Assembly (NCBI GenBank): GCA_964498725.1 | Contig: CAZCHS010000004.1 | Coordinates: 26,876-90,875 of the forward strand | Direction of reading: 5' to 3' | DNA from: an uncultured bacterium | GTDB taxonomy: Bacteria > Fidelibacterota > UBA2242 > JAFGTP01 | DNA: 64,000 nt | Shown here: positions 15,545 through 63,951 of the stretch, piece by piece | How the letters are laid out: each line of letters opens with the position of its first letter | How positions within the stretch are numbered: position 1 is the first letter of the stretch | The notes under the pieces: generated by a model | What the model was told of the DNA's origin: nothing | Seen by the model: the letters and a program-made list of their open reading frames with translations, nothing else | Database searches by the model: none | Made by a program: the position numbers and the translations under genes

Positions 15545-16576
15545 CTAGAAACCGACACTAATGGAAAAGTATTGATTCGCATCAAACAATTCCATCGGTC
15601 TGAAAGCATAATCAAAATATACTTTAGTGCCCGCCATGGCCATATTGAGTCCCAAACCATAGCTTAAGTCAAACTGACCATCCTTGTCCCATTCCCAATC
15701 ATCAGGATAGAGATTCTGGATATAACCGGCTCTGAGAAGGAGAAGATTATTAATATTCACTTCCCCACCCAGATTTAATTTGTCCAGTTCCAGTGTATTT
15801 TTACTGTATTGACTAAAAACTGCGACAGATGCCGCATTACTTAATTTTCTGGTATAAGCCACACCCATATTCATACTGGTTGGCAATTCCGCCGAAGCCA
15901 TGTCCAGTTTTGTTTTGCGGGTTGTGGCATTGGGATTTGCAAAAGGTATATTGGAATCAAATTCAATTTCCGGCCCGTCGAATGTCATGTCGGTACCGAT
16001 ATTTTTCATAGTAATTCCAAAATCCAGACCAAAATTTGTCCGGTATTGCAAACCAAAATCAAATCCCATTGCGCTGGCCGACATGTTTCCAATGTTCTCA
16101 CTAATAATTTTAATATTGGAGCCAAAGGAGACTTTATTTGTCATTTTTTTGGAATAGGTTAATCCGGCAGTCAGGTAATCAGGACTAATTTCCTGTCCTG
16201 TACCTTCGGGGGAATTGATTGTCGTTACTTCTATTTTTCCAATATTGAGGGATTGTATACTGACACCGATTATTCCCAGCCGGCCCAGATTGACACCGGT
16301 GGTGATATAGGAGACTTTCATGTCAGCAAAATAATCCAGGTAACTGAAACTGGCCTCTGCCTGCTTTATATATGCCAAACCGGCCGGGTTCCAGTAAATT
16401 GCTTCTGTTCCATCTACCTTTGCAATATCAGCGCAACCCAGGGATACATTTCTGGCCCCCATTGGAATCAATAATTCAGGCGCGGCAGCGGTGCCCAAGC
16501 GGGTTCCGCTGGCAAAAACCACCTGTGTAAATAGTAGTAATAATAAACATATAATTTTAATATCGTTTCTTTTCAT
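15545..16576 (-). CDS. PorV/PorQ-family outer-membrane beta-barrel (T9SS cargo shuttle-like)
   Basis: Signal peptide (LLLLLFTQVVFASG). AAAPELLIPMGARNVSLGCADIAKVDGTEAIYWNPAGLA resembles the PorV/UPF0164 N-terminal motif. Alternating beta-strand pattern and C-terminal ...YFSISVGF. The start is set at MKRNDIK with GGAGG upstream. Confidence 0.6.
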   Translation of the reverse strand: MKRNDIKIICLLLLLFTQVVFASGTRLGTAAAPELLIPMGARNVSLGCADIAKVDGTEAIYWNPAGLAYIKQAEASFSYLDYFADMKVSYITTGVNLGRLGIIGVSIQSLNIGKIEVTTINSPEGTGQEISPDYLTAGLTYSKKMTNKVSFGSNIKIISENIGNMSASAMGFDFGLQYRTNFGLDFGITMKNIGTDMTFDGPEIEFDSNIPFANPNATTRKTKLDMASAELPTSMNMGVAYTRKLSNAASVAVFSQYSKNTLELDKLNLGGEVNINNLLLLRAGYIQNLYPDDWEWDKDGQFDLSYGLGLNMAMAGTKVYFDYAFRPMELFDANQYFSISVGF

Positions 16577-16617
16577 AATTTTTACCTCCATAATTAGGTT
16601 ATCAGAAAAACTGACCA

Positions 16618-19600
16618 TTAGTAGGTATCCAGACGTTCGTTTGGAGCAAAGATCGCGAGTTTGCCGATTTTTTCGCCAACTTTTGGAATATCCACATGAT
16701 AAACATAGATACCACTGGCGACTGGCAACCCATACTCATTGCTCAAATCCCACTGGGTCAGCGTGGTGGTGGGATCGTCTTTTTGGATTTTTTTGATCTG
16801 ATTTCCGGCCAGATCAAAAATTCTGATCGTACATTTTTCAGGCAGGTTCGTAAACTGTACCCAACGCTGGAAAATATTCATTTCACCGGAATGATAGCCG
16901 TAATATGGGTTTGGTACAACTTTGATATTGTTAATATCATCCTTTTTATGGTTGGTGGAATCAGTGGCGGCCTTCGGCGCTTCAAAGGTGTAATAATCAT
17001 TTTCACTATTTGGTTTAGCTGAATTCCATCGGACAACTGTTCCTGGCGCCGGCGGTTTACCCCAAATACCACCTGATCCCGGTGACCAGAGATCATAGTA
17101 CATTGAAAAAACAATCCTGCCAACAGAATGCCCGGAATCCCATAAAGACCCCCAGAAAATATTATTTAAAACATTATCGCCGCCATCGGCTGTGAGTTCT
17201 TCTTCATCATAGGGATAATTACAGATATAGAGACGTTCCCAACCGCTCAGAGCGCCGCCAACATAGGAACCTTCTCTTTCCTGGCTCCAGTACCAATCAT
17301 TGTCATCATCAATAATTCCGGCAATTACCTGTGTTTTTTCTCCGGATGGTGTAATTTTCCATACTCTGAAAGGCAAGCGGCCATTGGTTTTGTGGATTGT
17401 TTCAGCACCACCCAAAGTATCAGCTTCTTTCCAGCCATTGACGAACCAATCGCCATTAGCCGAACCTGCTTCACTGGCCCAGGCATTAAAAATCAACTGA
17501 CCTTCGGTTTCAGGATTTTCGACAAATTCAATAACAATATCATTCGGTGTGGTATTTCCACGCCAATCCCATTGTGTTAGTTGCGTTACCGGATCACCGA
17601 CAGCAGCACCATCGGCAGCAACAATAAATGCCGGCCTCCCCCCCTCATAATGGTCCGGAGCATTTAAACTGGAAATAAGATTGTCATCCATGACTTCATT
17701 CCAGTCACTCGGGCTGACCTGTACAAGTTCAACGATACTTGGGGGTGCGCCAGCCACTTTTACCATCAGACCATCGGTAATATTATAGGCCTCATCATTT
17801 CTTTGGTTGCGCTGATGACTTAACAAAGTATCATTTTCAGTCTGGTCATACAAGTACCATTCTGATTCATTGTTTTCATAAAAACCAACCTTATATTCAT
17901 GGCCGCTTAATTTTAACGGGTCCACAACGAGTGCTGTCATACTTCCCTGGCTTTCCGGTTTTGTTGTATCTTTTCTCATATGAACAACAGGAATAGTATC
18001 ACCAAAGGAGGCATAGGTTCTGATACCCAGACGGCTTTGCGGTGTTACCCTGACAATTGTGGGAGCACTTTCAAGTATTTTCGGCGCACCGTATTCACAA
18101 TAGCCTTCGGCAACCACTCCGAAATAATATTCTTTACCATTCACAAGCATGTTGCCGACATTTCCAACCGTTCCATTTGTGTTTTGTGTAATTCTGATCA
18201 TCCTGTTGCCGGTATAGGGAGATGCATCAGAAGCGTCATCCACCTGCCATTGGTCTATCAATACAGGATCAGCACCACTAGCATCGGAATACTGATATAC
18301 CGAATAGCCAAGAAAATTATAGGTGGAATCTAAAATAACTTTTTCCATATTATCCATAATTACAGTATCGCCATAGGCTTTGGCAACGATCGGGTCAGTT
18401 GAAGAATAAAAAGTTCCGTCTTCATTATATTCAGAGTTTCCGGTCCAGTTCAGAATAATTTCCTGGGATTTTTCACTGTATTCGATTTCCGGTGATTTCG
18501 GATTTTTCGCCAATTTAAAATTAACATCATAAGCCAGTTGTGCCAGACGGTCAACTTCTTTCAATTTCTGAACACTATTTAGATTATCAGTTCCACGAGC
18601 CATAATATATCCGGCAACAATCACTTGTACACCCGGTTCGCCAAAATCAGGAATGCCATTCATATTCAGGTCCCGATTTGGATTATTGGCTTCCCAGTAT
18701 GTCATGTCAAAGGGCCCGGTTGTCATAATAAACCGTCTGTCATCTTCATTGGAATCATTCCATCCGCTACCGGTTATGGGGTCACCACTAAACATAAAAT
18801 TGGCCGGTTCGGCATTCGGGTCAGTGCCAACGCCGCCCTCAGTGATTTTATTGCCGTCACGCCAGATAGCCCGCATATAATTATAGGCGTCCTGCCCGTT
18901 ATCGGGATTGCCGTTTGTGGGATCATCATTGTTATTATAATAAACAAAAGAAGTCATTTTTAACTTTTTCTTGTCATATAATACGGTTCCATCAGGAAGA
19001 ACAACTTCAGCGCCCTCTTCATCAACAATTGGCCCCTGAAAAAAATCAATTCCGGCAGCCGGTGGCGCAGAGCCATAATTCTGATCATCATTATCAGCAT
19101 TATAGCAGTATCCCAGTCCTAATAAGGTATCACAACCAACAAAATCATCAGTGGCATCACCAATGTCAGGATCGGTCCAGATTGTAAAATACGAATCCTT
19201 CCAATCAGTACCGCTCTTATTGGCAATCGTCCATTTGGTGAACATCATATCACCAAGCGCATCAGCCCGGTTGTAAGCCCAAACATATTGCCTGATTTCC
19301 GCATTTAATCTGTTGGTTTTAAACATTGTGTGATTAGCGAGGTCATTCCACACACAAAAGGCGGAAAAATCACCCAGCATCATCGGTTTTCCCTCTTCAT
19401 CAACGGGTGCTCCCTGTTCCACCGGCCAACTGGACCAATCCCCCACATTGGATGGCCTTAAAACATACCACCTGTAATCAGGATCATTGGGATTTGCCGG
19501 TTCATCAGGTGCGATAATTTCACCGGGTTGAAATTCTGTGGCATCATGAATCACACCAGCGATTCTTACTTCACCGTCAACACGGGCACCCAGCCACTGA

Positions 19601-19851
19601 CCGGCGCCAAACATAGGACTTAATCCGGAACCCTTTGGCCATTCCAGTCCCCAATTACTTGCCGGTACATCATGAAACCAGATGCCATTATTACGTAAAA
19701 ATCCATTTAGCCGGTTGGCGTCCATCCAGATGTCACTGGTCATGGCTGTTTTCGCCAAGGGGCCAATTTTTTTATTGTTATTTTTTTCTCCCATCAAAAA
19801 ACTTGATAACAGAAAAACCATTAATAAGGTATATACTATAATTTTTCTCAT
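16618..19851 (-). CDS. 1077-aa secreted protein of unknown function with T9SS-type C-terminal sorting domain
   Basis: Signal peptide without a lipobox. The C-terminal ~95 aa (KVVPNPYYGY...CTIRIFDLAGNQIKKI...WDLSNEYGLPVASGIYVYHVDIP..GKLAIF) fit the T9SS CTD / FlgD-Ig-like pattern. I recognise no catalytic motif in the body. GGAGG RBS. Confidence 0.6.
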   Translation of the reverse strand: MRKIIVYTLLMVFLLSSFLMGEKNNNKKIGPLAKTAMTSDIWMDANRLNGFLRNNGIWFHDVPASNWGLEWPKGSGLSPMFGAGQWLGARVDGEVRIAGVIHDATEFQPGEIIAPDEPANPNDPDYRWYVLRPSNVGDWSSWPVEQGAPVDEEGKPMMLGDFSAFCVWNDLANHTMFKTNRLNAEIRQYVWAYNRADALGDMMFTKWTIANKSGTDWKDSYFTIWTDPDIGDATDDFVGCDTLLGLGYCYNADNDDQNYGSAPPAAGIDFFQGPIVDEEGAEVVLPDGTVLYDKKKLKMTSFVYYNNNDDPTNGNPDNGQDAYNYMRAIWRDGNKITEGGVGTDPNAEPANFMFSGDPITGSGWNDSNEDDRRFIMTTGPFDMTYWEANNPNRDLNMNGIPDFGEPGVQVIVAGYIMARGTDNLNSVQKLKEVDRLAQLAYDVNFKLAKNPKSPEIEYSEKSQEIILNWTGNSEYNEDGTFYSSTDPIVAKAYGDTVIMDNMEKVILDSTYNFLGYSVYQYSDASGADPVLIDQWQVDDASDASPYTGNRMIRITQNTNGTVGNVGNMLVNGKEYYFGVVAEGYCEYGAPKILESAPTIVRVTPQSRLGIRTYASFGDTIPVVHMRKDTTKPESQGSMTALVVDPLKLSGHEYKVGFYENNESEWYLYDQTENDTLLSHQRNQRNDEAYNITDGLMVKVAGAPPSIVELVQVSPSDWNEVMDDNLISSLNAPDHYEGGRPAFIVAADGAAVGDPVTQLTQWDWRGNTTPNDIVIEFVENPETEGQLIFNAWASEAGSANGDWFVNGWKEADTLGGAETIHKTNGRLPFRVWKITPSGEKTQVIAGIIDDDNDWYWSQEREGSYVGGALSGWERLYICNYPYDEEELTADGGDNVLNNIFWGSLWDSGHSVGRIVFSMYYDLWSPGSGGIWGKPPAPGTVVRWNSAKPNSENDYYTFEAPKAATDSTNHKKDDINNIKVVPNPYYGYHSGEMNIFQRWVQFTNLPEKCTIRIFDLAGNQIKKIQKDDPTTTLTQWDLSNEYGLPVASGIYVYHVDIPKVGEKIGKLAIFAPNERLDTY

Positions 19852-19883
19852 AAATTTTCCTCCAATCCAAAATTGAACATTTA

Positions 19884-22800
19884 TTATAATTCCAGACGCA
19901 AGCCAAGTCGAATTTGTCTTGGAGTTGCATAATTACTGTAGTCCCATGCTCTCATTTTGTACTGTTTCTTTTCAACTTCTGTTAGATTATTCCAGTATAC
20001 TTTGCCGGGATTGGTGCCCAGATAGCCGGTACTATTGGGTGTTCCGGTTGTTATGTATACATTTTTCACATTTTCTTTATTCAGCAGGTTCAGAACTGTT
20101 ACATAGGCGGTCATTTTTACAGGTCCGACAGTAAACCGTTTATCAACCTTCAAATCCATTTGCTGCATCCATGGTGTTCTTTCCGCGCCCACAGCTGAAA
20201 GCGGTGTCTCGGAAATGCCTTCATTATCATTCCGGCCGCCAAAAGGCTGTGTATTTGCAATTTTGGCTAAGGTATAGGGATTACCTGAATTGAATGAGAA
20301 CATCATGTTAACACCGGCATTGTTCAGCAAATTAACCGGAGCATCATCAGGGCCATATCGATAATCCAAAACAATGCTACCGCGATGACGCTGTTCAAAG
20401 TCAAGGGGCATTGCAAATTTTGGAAAATTTCCATCTTTGGACCCATCCTGCCAGGCAATATCAAAATTAGAATCAGCATTGGAGCCGGTTCCTTTGGCAA
20501 TTTGAAATTCATAATTTGCATTGATGGACAGATTGTTAAATCTGCGCATGTTAAAAATCACATCAAAACCCTTGATCGTACCAAAATCGCCATTATCCGT
20601 AAAAGCAATTTCAGTCGCGTCAGTCAGATGTGGAAATACCAGGATCAGATCTTCGGTTTCCTTGAAGAAGGTGGTTAACTGCAAGGAAGCATTTTGTCCC
20701 AGCATTTGTTTAAACCCAATTTCATAGGAAGTTGTTTTTGGCGGTCTCAGATTAGGATTGTCAATGGTTGTAAAATAACCGCCACTGGAAACATAAGTGT
20801 TTAGATAAAAGGGACTCAAATACAAATCCCGTAATTGCGGTGCTTGATAGAATATACCATACTGTGTATGAAACACAGTACTTTCAGTGATCGGAAACGA
20901 AAAACCAAATCGCGGACTAATGTAATCATAAGCTTCGGAAGGTTCTGTATCTTCTTTATCAAACTGGCCGTTTCCGCCAAACATGCCACTACCTGGAATG
21001 TAGTTACCATCTTTATCAACTCGCTTGTCAATCTCTTTGAACATCCAGGCATTTGGATCAATCCTGTCATAACGAAAACCAACATTCACAATTATATTTT
21101 CATACTCGATCTTATCCTGAAGATAGCCGCTGATGATGATTGGATGATAAGGTTCCTGTTCATTAAAACCGGAAATTGGATTGCCGGCTTCATCACGAAC
21201 CACGTCATCAAGAAAACTTTTTCCGTCGCCTACTTCTTTGCCGTCAATATCATAGCCATAAAACCGAATATCTGTGGATTGATATTTTTCCAGTTCCGTA
21301 CCATATTCTCTGGCATAGCTTTCCGGTGCCAGGGCACGATACTCTCGTAATGTATGATACTTATATTCAAAACCGGTCTTAAAGGTATGATTTTCATTAT
21401 ACTGATGGGTTAAATCAAAATCAATTGCCCAATAGGTTGTTCTGTTTTTAAAATAATCATTAAAGGGCACACCAGGCGCAAAAAAGTCAGGCTCCAGTGT
21501 TCCATTGAAACGGGTCCCTTCAAAAGTATTTAACCCCCGGTAATATCTTTCATTGTAAAGTTCCTCTAATTCCGGATCACCAACATAGAAAATATTTTGT
21601 TCCGGATAGGGTTGTTCAGCCGCACTACCATATTTTGTCAGATCATCACCAAATTTCCTGTCATAATGTTTTCGCTCAGTATCAAAGTATTTTAATCGAA
21701 AATCATAAAATGTGGTGTTGGAAATTGTATGGGTCAAAGCTGTATTCAATGACAATGTATTGGATGACATTGTGGGAGCGTGGGCCTGATTGAAAAAATA
21801 CTGCCTGTGCATGGCGTCATCATTGAAAGGATCTGAAGAAAATTCACGCACTGTTTTGGCAAACCCGGTTTTCAGAGCCATGTTATCAGTGAATTGTAAT
21901 TTGAATTTTCCATTCCAGGCCCAGACATCATTAAAATTACCGGGAATTCTACCATTAAAATTAAATTTATGAGTACCCAGATCCAATGTATCGCGTTCAG
22001 TATAGGTGATCAACGATGTGTCCATCTGTCCCATCTCATCATTATAAGCAATGCGGATGCTGTCGAATTCATTGTCATAGGTAAACATCTGGTCATAAGT
22101 TCTGGATTCCAGTCGATAAGGGTTTTCAGCCCAGCCGTAAGATGGTGTCCAGTCGGCCTGATATTGTCTTGTACCACTGACAAAGAAAGTGTGGTTCTTA
22201 CCGGGGATAATGGGGCCACTCAAAGTCGCCACGTATTCATTGTGTCCATAAGAATAAGCGCCCAAAATTTTATCATCAGCGCTTAAAAATTCATCGGTGT
22301 CAAAGGACAGGGATGTCTTATACTCTTTAGTACCAACATTGGTTGTCAAGGCGACAATTCCGGACATGGCATCACCATACTCAGCATTGAAACCACCGGT
22401 CTGAACACTCATTTCTTCTATGGCTTCGTTGGGCAGGTAGAGCCGGACAGCACTGTTATAGGGGTCATTCACCAAAACACCGTCAATATATACAGCTGTT
22501 TCTGCTGCGCGGCCGCCACGAACATTCATATCATTGGAGTTAGCCGTTTTGACCACACCGGCTGTGGCGGCGGCAATTTCCTGCATGCCTCTGACAGGAA
22601 GATTTGAAATATCTTCTGCTGTTTTAATCACATTGGTGTTTGTTTCATCTTTCCTGATAATTTTTCTATGGGCAGTAACAAGAACTTCTTCCATATCCAA
22701 AGCGCTTTGTTCCATTTCCAGGTTAATTTCAGTTGTCAAGTCCAATGATACATGAAGATTTTTCATTACGATGGTTTTTTTACCCATATAGGATACTTTC

Positions 22801-23024
22801 AGAGTGTATTCTCCTACCGGCACATTCAGTATCGAATAGTAACCATCCGTGTTGGTCGCGGCACCTGTATTAATGCCATTCCCAGTTACAACAATATTTA
22901 CTCCCGGTAATGGTTCACCGGTTTCTTTATCTGTCACTATTCCTGCGATCTTACCGGTTGTACCGGCAAACAGTACAAAGGGTAGTAAAATGGTTAATAA
23001 CCATAAAATGACGTTTCTTGTCAT
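19884..23024 (-). CDS. TonB-dependent receptor, SusC-sized, with carboxypeptidase-regulatory-like N-terminal domain
   Basis: Signal peptide. GKIAGIVTDKETGEPLPGVNIVVTG..TDGYYSILNVPVGEYTLKVSYMG is a CarboxypepD_reg-like domain. A plug region follows (VLVTA...NVIKTAEDISNLPVRGMQEI), then a long beta-barrel-like body. AAGGAGG RBS. Confidence 0.8.
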   Translation of the reverse strand: MTRNVILWLLTILLPFVLFAGTTGKIAGIVTDKETGEPLPGVNIVVTGNGINTGAATNTDGYYSILNVPVGEYTLKVSYMGKKTIVMKNLHVSLDLTTEINLEMEQSALDMEEVLVTAHRKIIRKDETNTNVIKTAEDISNLPVRGMQEIAAATAGVVKTANSNDMNVRGGRAAETAVYIDGVLVNDPYNSAVRLYLPNEAIEEMSVQTGGFNAEYGDAMSGIVALTTNVGTKEYKTSLSFDTDEFLSADDKILGAYSYGHNEYVATLSGPIIPGKNHTFFVSGTRQYQADWTPSYGWAENPYRLESRTYDQMFTYDNEFDSIRIAYNDEMGQMDTSLITYTERDTLDLGTHKFNFNGRIPGNFNDVWAWNGKFKLQFTDNMALKTGFAKTVREFSSDPFNDDAMHRQYFFNQAHAPTMSSNTLSLNTALTHTISNTTFYDFRLKYFDTERKHYDRKFGDDLTKYGSAAEQPYPEQNIFYVGDPELEELYNERYYRGLNTFEGTRFNGTLEPDFFAPGVPFNDYFKNRTTYWAIDFDLTHQYNENHTFKTGFEYKYHTLREYRALAPESYAREYGTELEKYQSTDIRFYGYDIDGKEVGDGKSFLDDVVRDEAGNPISGFNEQEPYHPIIISGYLQDKIEYENIIVNVGFRYDRIDPNAWMFKEIDKRVDKDGNYIPGSGMFGGNGQFDKEDTEPSEAYDYISPRFGFSFPITESTVFHTQYGIFYQAPQLRDLYLSPFYLNTYVSSGGYFTTIDNPNLRPPKTTSYEIGFKQMLGQNASLQLTTFFKETEDLILVFPHLTDATEIAFTDNGDFGTIKGFDVIFNMRRFNNLSINANYEFQIAKGTGSNADSNFDIAWQDGSKDGNFPKFAMPLDFEQRHRGSIVLDYRYGPDDAPVNLLNNAGVNMMFSFNSGNPYTLAKIANTQPFGGRNDNEGISETPLSAVGAERTPWMQQMDLKVDKRFTVGPVKMTAYVTVLNLLNKENVKNVYITTGTPNSTGYLGTNPGKVYWNNLTEVEKKQYKMRAWDYSNYATPRQIRLGLRLEL

Positions 23025-23115
23025 AGTTCCTCCTTTTTTAAACCTATTTCATTATTTTTCGATTAATGACTAAGAGAAGTATGTATCCCCCTTCCACTAA
23101 TCCCAGGTCTACATT

Positions 23116-23131
23116 TTCAATACATGTACCA
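23116..23131 (-). promoter_or_regulatory. candidate sigma54 (-24/-12) promoter of the TonB-receptor operon
   Basis: The minus strand reads TGGTAC-ATGTA-TTGAA (consensus TGGCAC-N5-TTGCW), about 90 nt upstream of ATG 23024. The GG and TTG spacing is exact. The -12 C is replaced by A. Confidence 0.35.
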
Positions 23132-23434
23132 AAGGGAAAATATTCTTCATTTCACATTAAAATATCATAAAACAAATATCCCAAATTCATGAAAATAATG
23201 ATATTACCTCTTAATTTCTGATATTTAGGAAATACTAAAAAAAAGCCTTCAAATCGGATATTTAAGAAGTTTACTATATTTAGGATATAGCAACTCCGGT
23301 TTATTGGTAATATTATTTTTTTATCATTATCAGGTTTTTTCATTAATCTGTGAAAGAGATAATTGAAAAAGATGGTCAGCTGAATTTTGGAAACAAGTGT
23401 TATTGACTGAAAAAAGTCCATAATCCGGGGCACT

Positions 23435-23494
23435 AAAAAGAAAAAGGAAAGCTTTTATAATAGCTTTCCTTTTTCTAAGGATTAGTATGGTACC
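23435..23494 (-). ncRNA. candidate small RNA, copy 1 (conserved 5' GUACCAUACUAAUCCU + intrinsic terminator)
   Basis: An orphan terminator hairpin (GGAAAGCT/AGCTTTCC, 23446-23469) with a T-tract on the minus strand and no gene to terminate. It lies downstream of a sigma54-like box. A 28-nt block is conserved with copy 2 at 1 mismatch, while the terminator stems differ in sequence but both still pair. Ends are estimated, not mapped. Confidence 0.4.
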
Positions 23495-23504
23495 CTATTT
23501 TTAA

Positions 23505-23520
23505 GTCAATATAAATGCCA
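23505..23520 (-). promoter_or_regulatory. candidate sigma54 promoter of sRNA copy 1
   Basis: The minus strand reads TGGCAT-TTATA-TTGAC. The spacing to the conserved GTACC block fits a start about 12 nt downstream. Confidence 0.4.
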
Positions 23521-23612
23521 AACACTTCTAATAACATCAATTAATTCCTTTTTTCTGGTAAATAACTCGTCATGTTTTTATAATTACCGATACCTGGTGA
23601 ATATTCAGGAAT

Positions 23613-23628
23613 TGGTGTTGAAATTGTC
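23613..23628 (+). promoter_or_regulatory. weak sigma54-like box upstream of the lipoprotein gene
   Basis: TGGTGT-TGAAA-TTGTC on the + strand, about 40 nt before ATG 23670. Weaker match in the -24 half. Confidence 0.2.
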
Positions 23629-23669
23629 AAAAAAATTTAAAAAATAATATAATTTCAGGAGGAATATTT

Positions 23670-24239
23670 ATGAAAAATTTATTAAAAATATCATTTGTCC
23701 TTTCGTTGCTTTTTATGTTCAATTGCACCGGAACCATTAAGCCTCTGGGCTATTTTTCCCTCTACCCTTATTCAAATCCCGCTGCAAATCAAAATCATAC
23801 CACTTTAAATATACTTTTAGGCGATGATGTCAAAAATGATTTCTCAGTAAAATCAACCGGCATAAAAGAAATGCAGGTAAGGGATTTTCGTAAATCTGTG
23901 GAATCCAGTCTTATCAATACCTTTCAAGAAAACTATAAAAATATACGGGTGTGTGAAACAATATCTGGGCAGGGATTAACATTAACCGTCTACCGGATCA
24001 GACCTTTCTGGAAACTTGAAGATATATTCACCCCTTCAGAAACATTAAAGGAACGATATGTTGTCTCTGCCGGCTTTCAGATTGACGCCGCATTATTTCT
24101 TAATGGCAAAAAAATCAAAAGTGTTGTTGACACGATTTACAGTGATGAGAAAATGACAAATACTCACCAGGCCCATAATATTTTTAAAAATGGTTTTGAA
24201 AAAGTCTGTGAAACAATTAACCACCGTCTATTTATTTAA
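23670..24239 (+). CDS. hypothetical lipoprotein (189 aa)
   Basis: Signal peptide with lipobox (LLFMFNCTG). AGGAGG RBS. No recognisable domain. Confidence 0.6.
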   Translation: MKNLLKISFVLSLLFMFNCTGTIKPLGYFSLYPYSNPAANQNHTTLNILLGDDVKNDFSVKSTGIKEMQVRDFRKSVESSLINTFQENYKNIRVCETISGQGLTLTVYRIRPFWKLEDIFTPSETLKERYVVSAGFQIDAALFLNGKKIKSVVDTIYSDEKMTNTHQAHNIFKNGFEKVCETINHRLFI

Positions 24240-24280
24240 ATAGTTAAACTAATCCTGCAAAATTCATAACTAATCAGGTT

Positions 24281-24345
24281 AAAAAAAAGAAAAAGGAAGT
24301 CGCTGGCGCGGTCTTCCTTTTTCTCAGGATTAGTATGGTACGTGT
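24281..24345 (-). ncRNA. candidate small RNA, copy 2
   Basis: Same architecture as copy 1: sigma54-like box, GTACCATACTAATCCTGAGAAAAAGGAAG, a GC-rich hairpin (24295-24317) and a T-tract. It begins about 40 nt downstream of the stop of the sigma54 activator gene, on the same strand. Ends are estimated. Confidence 0.4.
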
Positions 24346-24355
24346 ATATTTTGTA

Positions 24356-24371
24356 TTCAATAAAAATGCCA
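24356..24371 (-). promoter_or_regulatory. candidate sigma54 promoter of sRNA copy 2
   Basis: The minus strand reads TGGCAT-TTTTA-TTGAA. Confidence 0.4.
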
Positions 24372-24411
24372 AAATTTCAGATTATGGCTGTTTTTAAATA
24401 ACTTCTTCTCT

Positions 24412-27400
24412 TTAATTGTTAATATTCAGTTTTTTCATTCGGCTAAACAAGGTTTTTGGATTAATTTTAAGAATTTCTGCCGCACCATTTTCTCCGCTAA
24501 CCTTTCCCTTGGTATATTCTAATATTTTTTCAATGTGACGCCTCTGAAGTTCCTCAAGAGTCAAGAGTGAATCCCCTGTATCGGATCGCCGCTCTTTTTT
24601 CAGGGATTCGAACCACTCCCCCAGTTCCAGAATATCCGCACTACTGACAATAATAGCGCGCTGAATAATATTTTCCAGTTCCCGAATATTCCCCGGCCAA
24701 CGATATTTCATCAGTTTATTGATTGTACTTTGTGGAATTTTTGAGATCGTTTTATTGAACTTTTCACAATACTTATTTACAAAATGTTTTACCAGTAAGG
24801 GGATATCTTCCATCCTTTCCCTGAGAGGCGGTAGATTGATCGGAAAAACATTGAGCCGATAAAATAAATCTTCACGAAACTGTCCGGTTTTCACTTCTTC
24901 TTCCAGGTTTCTGTTGGTCGCTGCGATAATCCGCGTGTTGGTTTGCAGGGTGATGGAATTGCCCAGCCGCTCAAACTCACCATTTTGCAGCACCCGCAAT
25001 AATTTTTGTTGAACTTTGATGGGCAGTTCACCGATTTCGTCAAGAAATATAGTGCCGCCATTAGCCAGTTCAAACCGGCCGATCTTCCGCTTGTTAGCAC
25101 CGGTAAACGCGCCTTTCTCATGTCCGAACAATTCCGATTCAATCAGATTGGGTGGCAGGGAAGCACAATCTACTTTTATAAAGCATTCTTTCCGTCTGGA
25201 ACTACTTTTATGGATCGCATGGGCAAGCAAATCCTTTCCGGTTCCGGATTCTCCTAAAATGAGTATAGTTGGATCAGCCCCGGAAGCAATTTCAATCTGC
25301 TGTAAAATATTTTGCATTTTATTGCTATTCGTGACAATTTCTTTATAATGAATATGATTATTTATTTCTATTTCATGTTTCAAAAAGGTATTTTCATTTT
25401 CTAATTTTATTTTCAGATTTTCCACTTCCAAAAGCGCATGATTTAAACGCTCATTGATCTCATTTTTTTCCTTGATTTGTTTTTGTAATACCAGTTTGCT
25501 CTTTCGAACTTTTCGTGTTCTGTATTGAATAATCAAATATATTGCGCCTGTCGACACCAGTATCAACAGTATTTTAAACCACAGGGTTTTCCAAAAAGGA
25601 TATCTGATTTGAAAATTGATCACTTTCTCCTGTTCATTCCAAACATGGTCAAAATTCGCGGCTTTTAAATGAAAGGTATAGTCCCCGGGTGCTAAATGTG
25701 AATAGGTCAGGTATTTGTAATTTTTGCAATAATTCCAATCCTCATCCACCCCCTCCAGGAAATAAGCCAATTGATTATTTTCCGGAGATACATAATGAAG
25801 ACCGCGAATATCAAAGGAAACAACATCCTGATCATATGAAAATTCAAGCGGGCTTTCAACAGACTGATCGACTATTTTATTAAATACATATAATCCTTTC
25901 ACCTGGGGTATGGCCGGCTTGGGATTTTTTCGAATATTTGAGGGATGAAAATAGGTAAAGCCATTCTTGGTTCCCATTAATATATAACCATTCCGCATCA
26001 GGAAACTGGCGCGCGGCAGAAACTGGCAATTTTGCAATCCGTCCTTGTTAAAATAATTATTGATCTGGCCATCATTGACAGACAACCGGGCAATGCCGTC
26101 GGGAGTGGATATCCACAGTTGACCTTTTCGGGTCGGAACAATAGCCAATATACAATTGTTTATCATGCCATTGGTTTCCAGATAATGACTAAAACGGCCA
26201 CTACTGTCCAGTTTATTCAACCCGCCATTTTCCGTGCCCACCCATATATGGCCATCAAAATCCTGCGTGACAAAATTAATTTTATCGTCACTGATTGAAT
26301 ATCTGTCATCGAAATCATTGCGGTAAGAGACAAATTCCGGTTCCATAGAATTGATCTCTGTACCCGGCAATAGGGAGAGCCCGTATTCCGCTGTACCGAT
26401 CAAAAGATCATTTTCTGTGGTAAAATGCAGCGACGTGATATGTTCGCCACTGATTGCCGACATGAAATTTTCATCGGGAAAGTAATGTAAAAAATTATCA
26501 TATTGTGAACGATAGCGATTTAACCCCTTTTGTGTGCCTACCCAAATATCCCCTTTATTCAAGGGATCACCTACAATTGACGTGATAAAATTGGAACTGA
26601 TACTTGAGAGTTCACGGGCAGAATATTGATAGTGTTTTACTCCCTGTTGCGGAGTTATCTTGTACAGTCCGTTGTTCGTGCCGCACCACAAATTATTTTC
26701 GCCGTCACGATACATGGCTGTGATCACCTGATAATTAAGTTCTTCTGTACCGGGCAGGCGGTAACTACTGTTATCAGAAAAATCATAGACGAATATTCCA
26801 TGATGGGTGCCGATCAGAATAGAATTTGAATTATGCCCGGCAAAGGAGAAAATAACATTGCTCATCAATCCTTTGTCAATTGTATGATGGGAAAAATTCC
26901 GGGCCGGGTAATATTTATAAAGCCCCTTCCCCTTCAGGCTGATCCACAAAACACCGCTGCGATCATAATAGAGTGCATGAATACCAGTGGAATTGTGGGT
27001 TTCAATATTGATTTCATAAGTATGAATTTTAATATTTTCTAAATTTTCCACCGGACTGATTTTGTATATTTTGTAGCCACTGCCTAACCACAGATTACCA
27101 AATTCATCCCTGACCATGGCATTTTTTTGGATATTGAATATTTTCTCTGAAAAATTTTCCTGATCTATTTTAATCAATTCTGTTTTTGCTTCATCGTACA
27201 AATAAAATCCGGCCTTTGTTGAGATTAAAAATAAGTTCTCTTTAACCGGAAAAATAAAATTCACATCAATGGTTTCCAGAAAATGCTCAAGTACCAGTAT
27301 TTTTTCGTTTACAGGAGAAAAATTAAGTTTATAAAATCCGTTATCACCGGTTGCTGCCAGCAGGGTATTATCGTCAATGATCTCTATATCGGTGATATGC

Positions 27401-27882
27401 TGTGAAATTCCGGCAGGAATAATAGCGGTACTGTCAGCATTTAAATTCCAGTAAAATAATCCATCGTCTGTCCCAAACCATATCTGGTAGTTGTCATGGT
27501 CAATCGCGGAAATATTTGCGCTGCCGGTGACGGCTTCCATGAAAAATGAAAATTTTCCGGAGCGAAGGTCAAGAGAGTTTAGGCCTCCAAACTTTGTTCC
27601 AACCAGAAGTACTGAACTATCGGTCTCACAGATATCGGTTATATGATCATCGGAAATACTGTTTTCATTATAGGGGTCAATTTTGTAACTATCATAATCC
27701 TGGCCGTCGTACTTGTACAGTCCGTCCGTGGTACCAAACCAGATATAACCTTGATTATCCTGGTGTATGACATTAATTGATTTATGAAAATCCAATGATA
27801 TTAAGCTAAGTTTATCTTCCTGTCCCAGGAGACAGGTTGACAGAAGCAGACTAATGATAAAAAAATTTATTTTATTTCTCAT
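24412..27882 (-). CDS. membrane-anchored sigma54-dependent transcriptional activator with periplasmic beta-propeller / Y_Y_Y sensor
   Basis: Signal/anchor segment, then about 700 aa of two-component-regulator-propeller-like repeats (recurrent ..W.GT..GL..). A Y_Y_Y-like domain (LAYFLEGVDEDWNY...LAPGDYTFHLKA) and a TM helix (LWFKILLILVSTGAIYLIIQY) follow. Then come a coiled coil and an AAA+ domain with Walker A GESGTGKD, GAFTGA and Walker B FLDEIGE. The C-terminus is a Fis-type HTH. The start is taken at MRNKINFF (ATG 27882); the ORF track's extended start is TTG. Confidence 0.85.
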   Translation of the reverse strand: MRNKINFFIISLLLSTCLLGQEDKLSLISLDFHKSINVIHQDNQGYIWFGTTDGLYKYDGQDYDSYKIDPYNENSISDDHITDICETDSSVLLVGTKFGGLNSLDLRSGKFSFFMEAVTGSANISAIDHDNYQIWFGTDDGLFYWNLNADSTAIIPAGISQHITDIEIIDDNTLLAATGDNGFYKLNFSPVNEKILVLEHFLETIDVNFIFPVKENLFLISTKAGFYLYDEAKTELIKIDQENFSEKIFNIQKNAMVRDEFGNLWLGSGYKIYKISPVENLENIKIHTYEINIETHNSTGIHALYYDRSGVLWISLKGKGLYKYYPARNFSHHTIDKGLMSNVIFSFAGHNSNSILIGTHHGIFVYDFSDNSSYRLPGTEELNYQVITAMYRDGENNLWCGTNNGLYKITPQQGVKHYQYSARELSSISSNFITSIVGDPLNKGDIWVGTQKGLNRYRSQYDNFLHYFPDENFMSAISGEHITSLHFTTENDLLIGTAEYGLSLLPGTEINSMEPEFVSYRNDFDDRYSISDDKINFVTQDFDGHIWVGTENGGLNKLDSSGRFSHYLETNGMINNCILAIVPTRKGQLWISTPDGIARLSVNDGQINNYFNKDGLQNCQFLPRASFLMRNGYILMGTKNGFTYFHPSNIRKNPKPAIPQVKGLYVFNKIVDQSVESPLEFSYDQDVVSFDIRGLHYVSPENNQLAYFLEGVDEDWNYCKNYKYLTYSHLAPGDYTFHLKAANFDHVWNEQEKVINFQIRYPFWKTLWFKILLILVSTGAIYLIIQYRTRKVRKSKLVLQKQIKEKNEINERLNHALLEVENLKIKLENENTFLKHEIEINNHIHYKEIVTNSNKMQNILQQIEIASGADPTILILGESGTGKDLLAHAIHKSSSRRKECFIKVDCASLPPNLIESELFGHEKGAFTGANKRKIGRFELANGGTIFLDEIGELPIKVQQKLLRVLQNGEFERLGNSITLQTNTRIIAATNRNLEEEVKTGQFREDLFYRLNVFPINLPPLRERMEDIPLLVKHFVNKYCEKFNKTISKIPQSTINKLMKYRWPGNIRELENIIQRAIIVSSADILELGEWFESLKKERRSDTGDSLLTLEELQRRHIEKILEYTKGKVSGENGAAEILKINPKTLFSRMKKLNINN

Positions 27883-48829: not shown

Positions 48830-50164
48830 ATGACCAGAAAAATATTATTTTCAATACTTTTCGCCGCAACTTTTGTATTTGCACAAAACTATCAGGATTG
48901 TATTGATCCACTCTGGTATTTCCAAAATATCGGCAGCACTAACAGTGCCCTTAGCAATAATACAACAACTGTTTCCTCGGAAATGACAGGCCTGGCCTCT
49001 AATCCGGCGACCCTGGCCCTGCATAAAAATCCTTTAGTTGGTTTGTCGCTAAGGAATAAAAACATGTCGAACGATTCGAAGTTTGCCAACACTAACGATC
49101 TGATCAGCAGCAACTTCAATGACAGCCAGTTGACAAATACAAAACTTAACGGGGTTAGTGCAATATATCCGTTTCCGGTCTACCAGGGTAGTATGGTGCT
49201 GGCATTTTCCTATGCCAATACCGCCAACTATTATGATCAGGCCGATGCCACCGGTGATTTCACCTATGACAACGCGCCTTTTTCTGTAGATAACACCTAT
49301 AATAAAACCGGGATAATGAATGCCTACCGCCTGGGATTGGCTGTTGAATTTAAAAAGAACCTTTTTATCGGTACGTCACTTAATTTTTATGACGGCAAAC
49401 AGGTTCAGGAGTACAACTATATTGACCGGGATATCAGTGATAATTTTCTTTACAGCACGATTAACAAACAAGTTGAAGTAAAGCCGGAATATTCCGGGTT
49501 GAATTTCAATCTTGGCCTACTCTATGTCAGTGGCAAAATGAAATTTGGACTGAATCTGGCAACACCTTTCAGTCTTAGCGTTAAAGAAAATTATGATAAT
49601 TCCGAAACCTGGACCTATGATGACGGTGAAAAGGATTCCTATTCCGATGGTGACTATATTAAATATAAAATAAAAACACCTACCGCCCTATCTACAGGTT
49701 TTGAATATAATTTTGGCAATATTACCTTGTTATTCGATGCAAAAATGCAGGACTGGCATAATATGAGCTTTCATTCTGACCTGAAGGATCATCACTATGA
49801 CGCCGACGGAAATCTGACCGGGACCAGCAGCACTGATGACAGAATTGACAGTGAGATCAGAAATAATTTAAAAACAACATTTGATTATGGCGTTGGTTTA
49901 TCAACCTTTATTTTTGATAGTTTCCAATTAATCGTTGGCCACCGGGTAATTTCCCGTCCTTATTATGATCTGCCTAATGACGAAAAGAATGTTCATCTTA
50001 CCGGAATCGGTATCAATACCAAACTCATGAATAACATGACTATTGGTCTCAGTTACCAATTTGAATTTGGTAAAAACACTCTTGAGCGGGAATATTTTGA
50101 ATACCCGATTTACAGAAAATATTACACACAGAATCTTAATATTACCACTTCTTTGATTTTTTAA
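48830..50164 (+). CDS. outer-membrane beta-barrel protein (PorV/FadL-like)
   Basis: Signal peptide (FAATFVFAQ). GLASNPATLA motif. Alternating strand pattern. C-terminal ...ITTSLIF. The start is 3 nt after the previous stop. Confidence 0.5.
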   Translation: MTRKILFSILFAATFVFAQNYQDCIDPLWYFQNIGSTNSALSNNTTTVSSEMTGLASNPATLALHKNPLVGLSLRNKNMSNDSKFANTNDLISSNFNDSQLTNTKLNGVSAIYPFPVYQGSMVLAFSYANTANYYDQADATGDFTYDNAPFSVDNTYNKTGIMNAYRLGLAVEFKKNLFIGTSLNFYDGKQVQEYNYIDRDISDNFLYSTINKQVEVKPEYSGLNFNLGLLYVSGKMKFGLNLATPFSLSVKENYDNSETWTYDDGEKDSYSDGDYIKYKIKTPTALSTGFEYNFGNITLLFDAKMQDWHNMSFHSDLKDHHYDADGNLTGTSSTDDRIDSEIRNNLKTTFDYGVGLSTFIFDSFQLIVGHRVISRPYYDLPNDEKNVHLTGIGINTKLMNNMTIGLSYQFEFGKNTLEREYFEYPIYRKYYTQNLNITTSLIF

Positions 50165-63791: not shown

Positions 63792-63951
63792 AATCCTCCA
63801 AGGTTTGAAAAAACCTTCGAGGATTAGTGTTGTTTGCCAGATTTAAACCTTGGCGTTGCTTCGGAATTCGAAGGTTGTTGGATTGGTTTGGTGCTTGTAG
63901 AGCGAATGTCCGATTCGCTTATCAAATATTCAGGTCGATCCTGAATATTTG
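63792..63951. repeat. cluster of four consecutive hairpins upstream of the ACP operon
   Basis: AATCCTCCAAGGTTT/AAACCTTCGAGGATT (63792-63825). CTTCGGAATTCGAAG palindrome. AGCGAAT/ATTCGCT (63901-63919). CAAATATTCAGG/CCTGAATATTTG (63923-63951), the last reusing the MITE terminal repeat sequence. Confidence 0.7.

Follow-up and report, generated by a model that had tools for sequence, protein, structure and literature searches.

Two paralogous candidate small RNA genes with sigma-54-type promoters beside a membrane-anchored activator gene in an uncultured Fidelibacterota bacterium

A 64,000-nt stretch of DNA from an uncultured Fidelibacterota bacterium (contig CAZCHS010000004.1, positions 26,876 to 90,875; the whole stretch is called the window below) carries two similar units of about 60 nt on its minus strand, next to the gene of a sigma-54 activator. 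Each has a sigma-54-type promoter box, a conserved block and an intrinsic terminator, and the question they raise is whether they are genes of small RNAs (sRNAs) or something else, such as operators, leaders or a chance repeat. We conclude that they are probably two paralogous small regulatory RNA genes, whose base-pairing products would depend on the activator and sigma-54 and would exert feedback and feed-forward effects on a nutrient-uptake locus. Their interpretation as sRNA genes is supported by comparative genomics, which we have extended with a predicted regulon, a candidate binding site and candidate targets.

Both units were found where an earlier note, made from the window's letters, had placed them: copy 2, here called sRNA-A, at 24371-24281 and copy 1, sRNA-B, at 23520-23435. 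In each, TGGCAT-N5-TTGA at the canonical -24/-12 spacing is followed by a variable spacer of 12-15 nt, a 15-nt block (GTACCATACTAATCC) that is identical in the two, and a strong intrinsic terminator. The longer 28-nt block that the note had called conserved (GTACCATACTAATCCNAGAAAAAGGAA) has two occurrences in the window and no more (minus strand, 23466-23493 and 24314-24341), and 100 shuffles yielded none. The terminator stems, which the note had described as pairing in both copies, fold strongly (folding energies of -21.8 and -20.4 kcal/mol; z = -5.5 and -6.3), and they turned out to be longer than noted: the A-tract AGAAAAAGGAA pairs with the U-rich CCTTTTTCT to give 13-15 bp, which makes the hairpins nearly symmetric, so that they fold on the plus strand too.

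The sRNA-A promoter (TTGGCATTTTTATTGA, 24357..24372, minus strand) has GG and TTG at the canonical -24/-12 spacing and does not differ from that of the related locus L001; its box begins 40 nt past the activator stop codon (24412), the distance the note had estimated. The predicted transcript of about 65 nt (24281..24345, minus strand), whose start near 24345 is placed from the -12 position, scores 79 bits with our covariance model R1 and is made up of the seed GUACCAUACUAAUCC (24341-24327), the terminator hairpin (24325-24288) and a U-tract to 24281. For sRNA-B the promoter is TTGGCATTTATATTGA (23506..23521, minus strand) and the predicted transcript of about 60 nt (23435..23494, minus strand; start placed near 23494; 78.5 bits with R1) comprises the seed (23493-23479), a 15-bp terminator hairpin (23476-23439) that was also detected by a terminator scan, and a U-tract to 23435. 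The seed lies at +2 to +5 from the predicted start and is unpaired in the consensus fold. By reading of the sequence, the predicted RNA has no start codon behind a Shine-Dalgarno-like motif.

Is each unit transcribed on its own? No gene of either strand terminates at the copy-1 hairpin, in agreement with the earlier note, and a promoter scan of the minus strand gave no sigma-70-type match 5' of either unit. Promoter-type boxes of their own, an intrinsic terminator and, after copy 2, a convergent gene are the features of stand-alone units, and we propose that each sRNA gene is a transcription unit of its own. As the stretch from the activator stop codon (24412) to the sRNA-A unit contains no terminator, the unit may double as the 3' end of the activator transcript. 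Reversed copies of the seed stand right behind both terminators (CTGATTAGT and AGGATTAGT after copy 2, 24248-24275, minus strand; GGATTATGG after copy 1, 23419-23427, minus strand), and the plus-strand 3' untranslated region (UTR) of ORF189, the convergent open reading frame (ORF) between the copies, thus bears seed-like ACTAATCC motifs 5' of the shared hairpin. One of these complements is changed in L001, and the other lineages have none.

Conservation carries most of the argument. Related loci (numbered with the prefix L) were gathered chiefly by protein look-ups, as scans of a genome collection and of metagenomes gave few: the activator protein returned two loci from the genome collection, one near-identical and the other an unrelated Ignavibacteriaceae AAA+ match, and ACCATACTAATCC-N1-5-GAAAAAGG returned two metagenome contigs only. 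Activator orthologs at 92, 60, 57 and 53% identity share the upstream synteny, and every related locus that reaches far enough has the unit in the syntenic position (L001, L003/4/5, L006 = L015, L007/8, L016/17/18 = L010, and L022). It is thus present in six lineages, and in the five beyond the window's own the activator is 53-60% identical or the lineage is known from short contigs (L010 = L016-L018; L022). The window, L015 and the L003/L016 lineage share the arrangement of sRNA-A behind the activator gene and sRNA-B before the receptor operon, and on this comparison both paralogs are taken to predate the split of these lineages.

Across eight sequences (A2), the columns TTGGCATT and ATTG of the -24 and -12 elements and all 15 bases of GTACCATACTAATCC are invariant, and the spacer between the boxes and the 15-mer varies in sequence as well as in length. 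The terminator is 92.6% paired over the eight distinct sequences, with three pairs altered on both sides; the inner stem switches from CGC/GCG to UGC/GCA, and in the L022 hairpin one A and one U have been lost jointly from the two arms. Comparison of the window with L001 (92% identical) found 42 differences over 1.4 kb, none of them in a box or seed and three in the two spacers, and the sole difference within a unit is one U fewer in the U-tract of copy 2. This conservation pattern is the one predicted for a gene composed of promoter, seed and terminator.

The covariance-model search that the earlier note had suggested was run with R1, which scores only these units, at 61-80 bits, and finds no further or diverged copies in ~218 kb (window plus loci). 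A 22.8-bit match in L012 was discarded: little more than a terminator, it lacks a sigma-54 box. The block is neither absent from relatives nor part of a longer mobile repeat, the two outcomes that the note had named as fatal to its proposal. A search of Rfam gave no match at gathering score in the whole window beyond tRNA, and in 22900-24500, searched up to E = 10, only chance matches far below threshold; the units form a new putative sRNA family, without match to the Rfam families.

More distant loci mark the limits of this distribution. Distant activator homologs (35-38% identity, L011-L014) have no unit, and in these loci sigma-54 boxes lie right after the activator-homolog gene and precede thioredoxin or receptor genes. 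At the receptor ortholog of L019-L021, neither promoter nor sRNA was found nearby. In L011 (8778-8880, plus strand), behind an activator homolog of 38% identity, a TGGCACAGTCCTTGA box is followed by ~70 nt of unrelated sequence with a hairpin, ATTGGGAGT...ACTCCCAAT, and a second box then precedes a thioredoxin-receptor operon; the first box and hairpin may be an analogous, non-homologous sRNA.

What would drive the units? The neighboring gene encodes a sigma-54 activator, as the earlier note held, with an AAA+ domain carrying the GAFTGA motif and an HTH_8 domain. The protein (24412..27882, minus strand) is membrane-anchored, having also a signal peptide, Reg_prop beta-propellers, a Y_Y_Y domain and one transmembrane helix (~aa 775-795), and is identical (100%) to P0001, a protein of 1156 aa annotated as from a Fidelibacterota metagenome-assembled genome. 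Its sensor resembles the periplasmic sensor of the Bacteroides hybrid two-component systems (HTCS), here fused directly to a sigma-54 activator. About 15 proteins of this architecture are in our homolog list, several from Marinimicrobia, and we found nothing in the literature on propeller-sensor sigma-54 activators controlling TonB-dependent receptors.

The sigma-54 promoter consensus is TGGCAC-N5-TTGC, with GG at -24, GC at -12 and 10 nt between them. All eight unit sequences keep GG, the spacing and TTG, and all have A or T where the consensus has the -12 C. The TonB-dependent receptor operon is preceded by a third promoter of sigma-54 type (TGGTACATGTATTGA, 23117..23131, minus strand), which is found again in L001, L015 and L016/L010, and the variant TGGTA[CT]-N5-TTGG precedes an unrelated (non-orthologous) SusC/SusD pair in L015 and L016, so these co-located receptor and SusC promoters also have the TTGA/TTGG type of -12 element. 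TTGA likewise follows TGG[CT]AC-N5 boxes directly behind the genes of the distant activator homologs; as it is shared with these, the non-consensus -12 base appears typical of the group. The earlier note had reported intergenic boxes of this kind, as far as it could scan, only from the 1.3-kb interval around the units. The only two intergenic matches to TGGCA-N6-TTGM in the window are those of the units. The box at 23131-23117 is a third sigma-54-like site, and the count of TGGCA-N6-TTGM (3 in 64 kb against 1.9 expected) is not significant by itself; it is conservation across genomes that raises the observation above chance.

Upstream of these promoters, at fixed distances, lies the palindrome TCTGAAATATCAGA (TCTGA-N4-TCAGA). 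In L003, L015 and L022 it stands at -146 relative to the sRNA-A promoter, and L015 and L016 have it at -92/-94 relative to the receptor promoter; further near-matches are at -128 to -146. Every match in the relatives (<=2 mismatches, searched strand) is 92-146 nt upstream of one such promoter, and 82 kb of unrelated loci gave none. The only clear copy in the window (2 mismatches) is that at the receptor promoter; the sRNA promoters have, by reading, at best degenerate sites. The candidate activator-binding sites of the window (23216..23268, minus strand) are TTCCTAAATATCAGAA at 23231-23216 and TTCTTAAATATCCGAT at 23268-23253, centered ~93 and ~130 nt 5' of the receptor promoter.

The predicted targets come from the seed. 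The sequence exactly complementary to it, AGGAUUAGUAUGG, is built like a ribosome-binding site (RBS): AGGA, five bases, AUG. Duplex folding of the full-length sRNA with UTRs gave meaningless long structures and was abandoned, and we limited the analysis to the single-stranded seed, scanning the 15-mer alone against 473 start sites with a Shine-Dalgarno-like motif from eleven sources. The best of the 473 was that of a 257-aa gene in L015 (-17.6 kcal/mol), and its L003 ortholog ranked third (-15.3 kcal/mol), against a background median of -5.7 and a 1% quantile of -13.1 kcal/mol. The RBS of this gene in two more lineages gives -15.3 and -18.2 kcal/mol, four lineages in total, and in all four AGGATT.GGTATGGT is invariant and the bases upstream vary. 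In these relatives the gene lies directly behind the activator gene, 20-25 nt past its stop. Its RBS would be a classical site for translational repression, giving feedback on the activator's gene cluster.

The 257-aa family, found in four clusters (L015 1357-2130; L003 9500-10273; L022 115-888; L023 97-879), is narrow and has no Pfam domain. The AlphaFold model of the protein is weak (predicted local distance difference test, pLDDT, 65), and so are its Foldseek matches, which are to amidohydrolase-2 TIM barrels (template modeling score, TM, ~0.45). The L023 contig starts with an Illumina TruSeq adapter (GTGACTGGAGTTCAGACGTGTGCTCTTCCGATCT, 1-45), an assembly artifact in the public record.

The second predicted target is the receptor mRNA. 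Its predicted 5' UTR (23025..23105, minus strand) should begin, 12 nt from the -12 position, with (A/G)GGAUUAGUG, and the sequence at this end (GGGAUUAGUG) complements that at the 5' end of the sRNA. The box at the inferred 5' end, GGGAUUAGUGG (23104-23094), is complementary to the seed and, within the UTR, to CAUUAAUC, with which it makes a hairpin at the 5' terminus (23102-23061); in 5/5 UTRs examined the 5' box is the 5' arm of such a hairpin. Since the sRNA seed resembles the 3' arm, its binding should open the hairpin. Pairing of the seed with the box gives -14.5 kcal/mol in the window, -17.8 in L015 and -20.5 in L016, placing it in the top 2.3, 1.4 and 0.5% of locus windows. Complementarity to the seed is thus kept at the 257-aa RBS in four lineages and at the receptor 5' end in four. 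The SusC-type UTR is not supported as a target (-11 kcal/mol, not significant).

Other sites that pair with the seed were given less weight. The window's best non-self site (CCAGGGUAGUAUGGUGCU, 49183-49200, plus strand) pairs with almost the whole seed at -24.3 kcal/mol; it lies in the coding region of a 444-aa protein without Pfam domain, is barely beyond the best of 14 shuffles (-23.7 kcal/mol), and was set aside. Two seed-complementary sites, GAGGATTAGTGTTG and TGGATTGGTTTGGTGC, are intergenic at the window edge (63818-63895, plus strand), with no sigma-54 box seen; they lie upstream of what looks, from its sequence, like an acyl-carrier-protein gene on the other strand. Among the best seed matches are also receptor-gene start regions that have no sRNA nearby, AAGGAGGAAUAGUAUGGCAC (L019/L020/L021 5986-6007, -16.0 kcal/mol) and GGAGGAUUGUAUGGG (L011 9585-9605, -13.7 kcal/mol): either the seed complement is merely a generic strong RBS or related sRNAs act there.

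Taken together, these elements suggest the following scheme. The membrane-anchored activator would sense something periplasmic through its propeller/Y_Y_Y domain, bind the TCTGA-N4-TCAGA palindromes ~90-150 nt upstream of its promoters, and open the sigma-54 promoters of sRNA-A, sRNA-B and the TonB-dependent receptor operon, as well as that of the SusC/SusD pair in relatives. Sequence and folding indicate that each RNA would have an unpaired 5' end, in which the invariant GUACCAUACUAAUCC begins 2-5 nt from where the transcript is predicted to start, and beyond it nothing but an intrinsic terminator; the 5' end would act as the seed. In relatives the sRNA is predicted to block translation of the 257-aa gene behind the activator gene, a feedback, and in all lineages its second predicted partner is the co-activated receptor mRNA, whose first 10-13 nt it could bind and whose 5'-terminal hairpin it would thereby open, a feed-forward step whose effect could be of either sign.

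Several observations weigh against this scheme. The -12 element lacks the consensus C (TTGA instead of TTGC), and there is no rpoN among the 19 window proteins scanned against Pfam. The hairpins are symmetric, and that of copy 2 could in the window also terminate the convergent ORF189 and activator gene. The best predicted target, the 257-aa gene, is absent from the window and from L008. Pairing with the receptor UTR is only moderately unusual, the box can also be explained by the UTR's own hairpin, and in the SusC-type UTR a G-to-A change in the box betters the internal hairpin and breaks the sRNA pairing. The best duplexes in random 64-kb sequence reach -18 to -24 kcal/mol, so that energies alone prove nothing and the case rests on adjacency, the restriction to start sites and conservation. 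Finally, the seed is invariant, and compensatory change between sRNA and target is therefore unobservable.

The alternative that survives best leaves the units as real sRNA genes, with products that act as a protein sponge or decoy rather than by base pairing, or with transcription by a housekeeping sigma factor; we consider it unlikely. The absolute invariance of 15 nt is likewise what a protein-binding site would be expected to show, and since the 3' arms of the UTR hairpins resemble the seed (CAUUAAUC, CAUACUAAG), one protein could recognize sRNA and UTR alike. Complementarity to a neighbor's RBS, kept in four lineages, speaks against a sponge, and a single-stranded 5' block followed by a terminator is also the layout of RybB and OmrA/B. 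The base-pairing FopS sRNAs share it (PMC11697453). As for the sigma factor, a housekeeping promoter would suit the missing -12 C, but what is conserved is precisely TTGGCAT and TTG, spaced as in sigma-54 promoters, and these elements lie next to the gene of a sigma-54 activator, with a conserved palindrome upstream. We know of no characterization of Fidelibacterota housekeeping promoters, which leaves some room for the alternative.

The 15-mer could also be a DNA operator, with a repressor or the activator binding GGATTAGT-type sites at the start points of these promoters, the hairpins serving as bidirectional terminators and any short RNA being a by-product. GGATTAGT is indeed found at ~+1 to +15 of all three window promoters, with opposite orientations in the sRNA genes and at the receptor promoter, and eight times in the window against 1.9 expected, and the unit hairpins fold on both strands. 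But the receptor box shares only 8-9 of the 15 invariant bases, where a common protein site should share the whole length, the 15-mer is matched best by the RBS of the 257-aa gene, which is not at a promoter, and the other four GGATTAGT matches lie within genes or far from these promoters. Moreover, a promoter that runs straight into a terminator and has nothing to express makes little sense unless it belongs to an RNA gene. We regard the operator as improbable.

Equally little speaks in sum for attenuator leaders, in which transcription from the TGGCAT promoter would stop at the hairpin and read through when a factor binds the 5' block. Such leaders would account for sRNA-B being always upstream of the receptor operon and in the same direction, for a CsgG/PEGA-like gene that begins 85 nt past sRNA-A in L003 with no promoter recognized between, and for the partial reverse seed copies just past both window terminators. 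These copies, however, are not kept in other lineages, and no alternative antiterminator structure was found; sRNA-A is followed in the window by a convergent gene, which leaves nothing to read into, and 300-450 nt past sRNA-B the receptor operon is served by a conserved sigma-54-type promoter of its own, with a palindrome upstream. A chance or selfish repeat, that is, a duplicated promoter-terminator fragment without function, is hardly credible: although the window holds only two copies and the box count is not above chance, the syntenic, position-specific conservation across lineages whose proteins are 53-60% identical contradicts it, and R1 scores only these units and finds no more in ~218 kb, so that chance and a dispersed repeat are ruled out.

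With base-pairing sRNAs as the reading we retain, the surrounding genes gain interest as its presumed regulon. The presumed regulated operon (15545..23024, minus strand), whose same three genes stand behind sRNA-B in L015 and L016, encodes a TonB-dependent receptor with a CarboxypepD_reg domain (19884-23024, minus strand), a 1077-aa protein without Pfam domain (16618-19851, minus strand) and a PorV/FadL-like outer-membrane protein (15545-16618, minus strand). The first 37 residues of the receptor (22914-23024, minus strand) are identical between the window and L010/L016, and the proteins are 58% identical overall; a constraint on the signal peptide or on the 5' coding sequence, or recombination, are possible explanations. 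A 93-aa ORF at 23152-23433 was rejected as a gene, having no Pfam match, 77% identity to L001 where its neighbors have 92-99%, and no counterpart in other lineages.

Between the two copies lies ORF189 (23670-24239, plus strand), a lipoprotein-like ORF of 189 aa with a cysteine-containing signal peptide and no Pfam match, found only in the window and L001. It sits where relatives have the 257-aa gene and the SusC/SusD pair, a replacement indicating that the locus was remodeled between the two sRNA genes.

Oceans, sediments and digesters all harbor abundant Fidelibacterota (SAR406/Marinimicrobia). The description of the phylum names one cultured strain, and in our literature search we found no paper on sRNAs or post-transcriptional regulation in Fidelibacterota. 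We tentatively suggest that these could be the first riboregulators described in the phylum and part of a self-contained sigma-54 module for outer-membrane uptake, in which one transmembrane HTCS-like sensor/AAA+ activator would induce TonB-dependent and SusC/D-like operons together with twin sRNAs, and these in turn would feed back on the gene behind the activator and forward onto the 5'-terminal hairpin of the induced mRNAs. If true, this would be a route to regulate polysaccharide-utilization-type loci distinct from the HTCS, SusR and extracytoplasmic function (ECF) sigma routes of Bacteroidota. It would also extend the pattern of 5'-seed sRNAs policing outer-membrane transporters beyond Proteobacteria and Bacteroidota, with a sigma-54 promoter type of non-consensus -12. 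The principle is not new, as sigma-54-dependent sRNAs and sRNA control of TonB-dependent/SusC transporters are already known. What the locus offers is a compact hypothesis in which every part is specified (a sensor-activator with its DNA site, four promoters, two sRNAs, two target sites), and with it a clean and testable module from a phylum that has hardly been studied.

How does the proposed module compare with known systems? GlmY/GlrR, CrcZ/CbrB and NrsZ/NtrC follow the same transcriptional logic, in that an activator with upstream sites and a -24/-12 promoter drives a non-coding RNA. GlmY and CrcZ are protein decoys and much longer, and by Rfam none of GlmY, CrcZ and NrsZ is homologous to the units. 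OmrA/OmrB, RybB and MicA are likewise paralogous sRNAs of 5' seed and terminator. Envelope-sensing regulators induce RNAs of this type, whose targets are mRNAs for outer-membrane proteins and TonB-dependent receptors, but they have OmpR or sigma-E promoters, depend on Hfq and share no sequence with the units. We know of no RNA chaperone in Fidelibacterota.

Closest in biology are FopS/GibS of Bacteroides thetaiotaomicron, which belongs to the same FCB (Fibrobacteres-Chlorobi-Bacteroidetes) superphylum. FopS also consists of a 5' seed and terminator and represses SusC-like transporters at the 5' end of polysaccharide-utilization operons; its genes are transcribed from a housekeeping sigma(ABfr) promoter, and binding is near the susC start codon (PMC11697453). 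The units differ in having a sigma-54-type promoter (TTGGCAT, ATTG) and a predicted receptor site at the extreme mRNA 5' end, ~80 nt before the start codon. Besides this difference in promoter type, no Rfam family matches the units, FopS included if it is in release 15.

Closest in mechanism are Qrr1-5 and LuxO of Vibrio, to which the earlier note had likened the arrangement; Qrr represses luxO mRNA in Vibrio quorum sensing. Membership in the Qrr family is not borne out, with no match to RF00378 at gathering score in the window or up to E = 10 in 22900-24500. The units are ~60 nt with one hairpin, whereas Qrr RNAs are ~100 nt with several stem-loops; the activator here is a transmembrane one-protein sensor, whereas LuxO is a phosphorylated response regulator; and the units belong to Fidelibacterota and a presumed outer-membrane uptake regulon, whereas Qrr belongs to Gammaproteobacteria and quorum sensing. 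Published work describes Qrr transcription as dependent on LuxO and sigma-54, and in the window a sigma-54-type box adjoins, 40 nt past the stop codon, the gene of an NtrC-family activator (Sigma54_activat/HTH_8), a shared feature that bears on mechanism and not on membership. Common to both systems are promoters of sigma-54 type, the adjacent activator, the multiple copies and, since the seed of the relatives complements the RBS of the gene behind the activator, a predicted feedback on the activator's own gene cluster.

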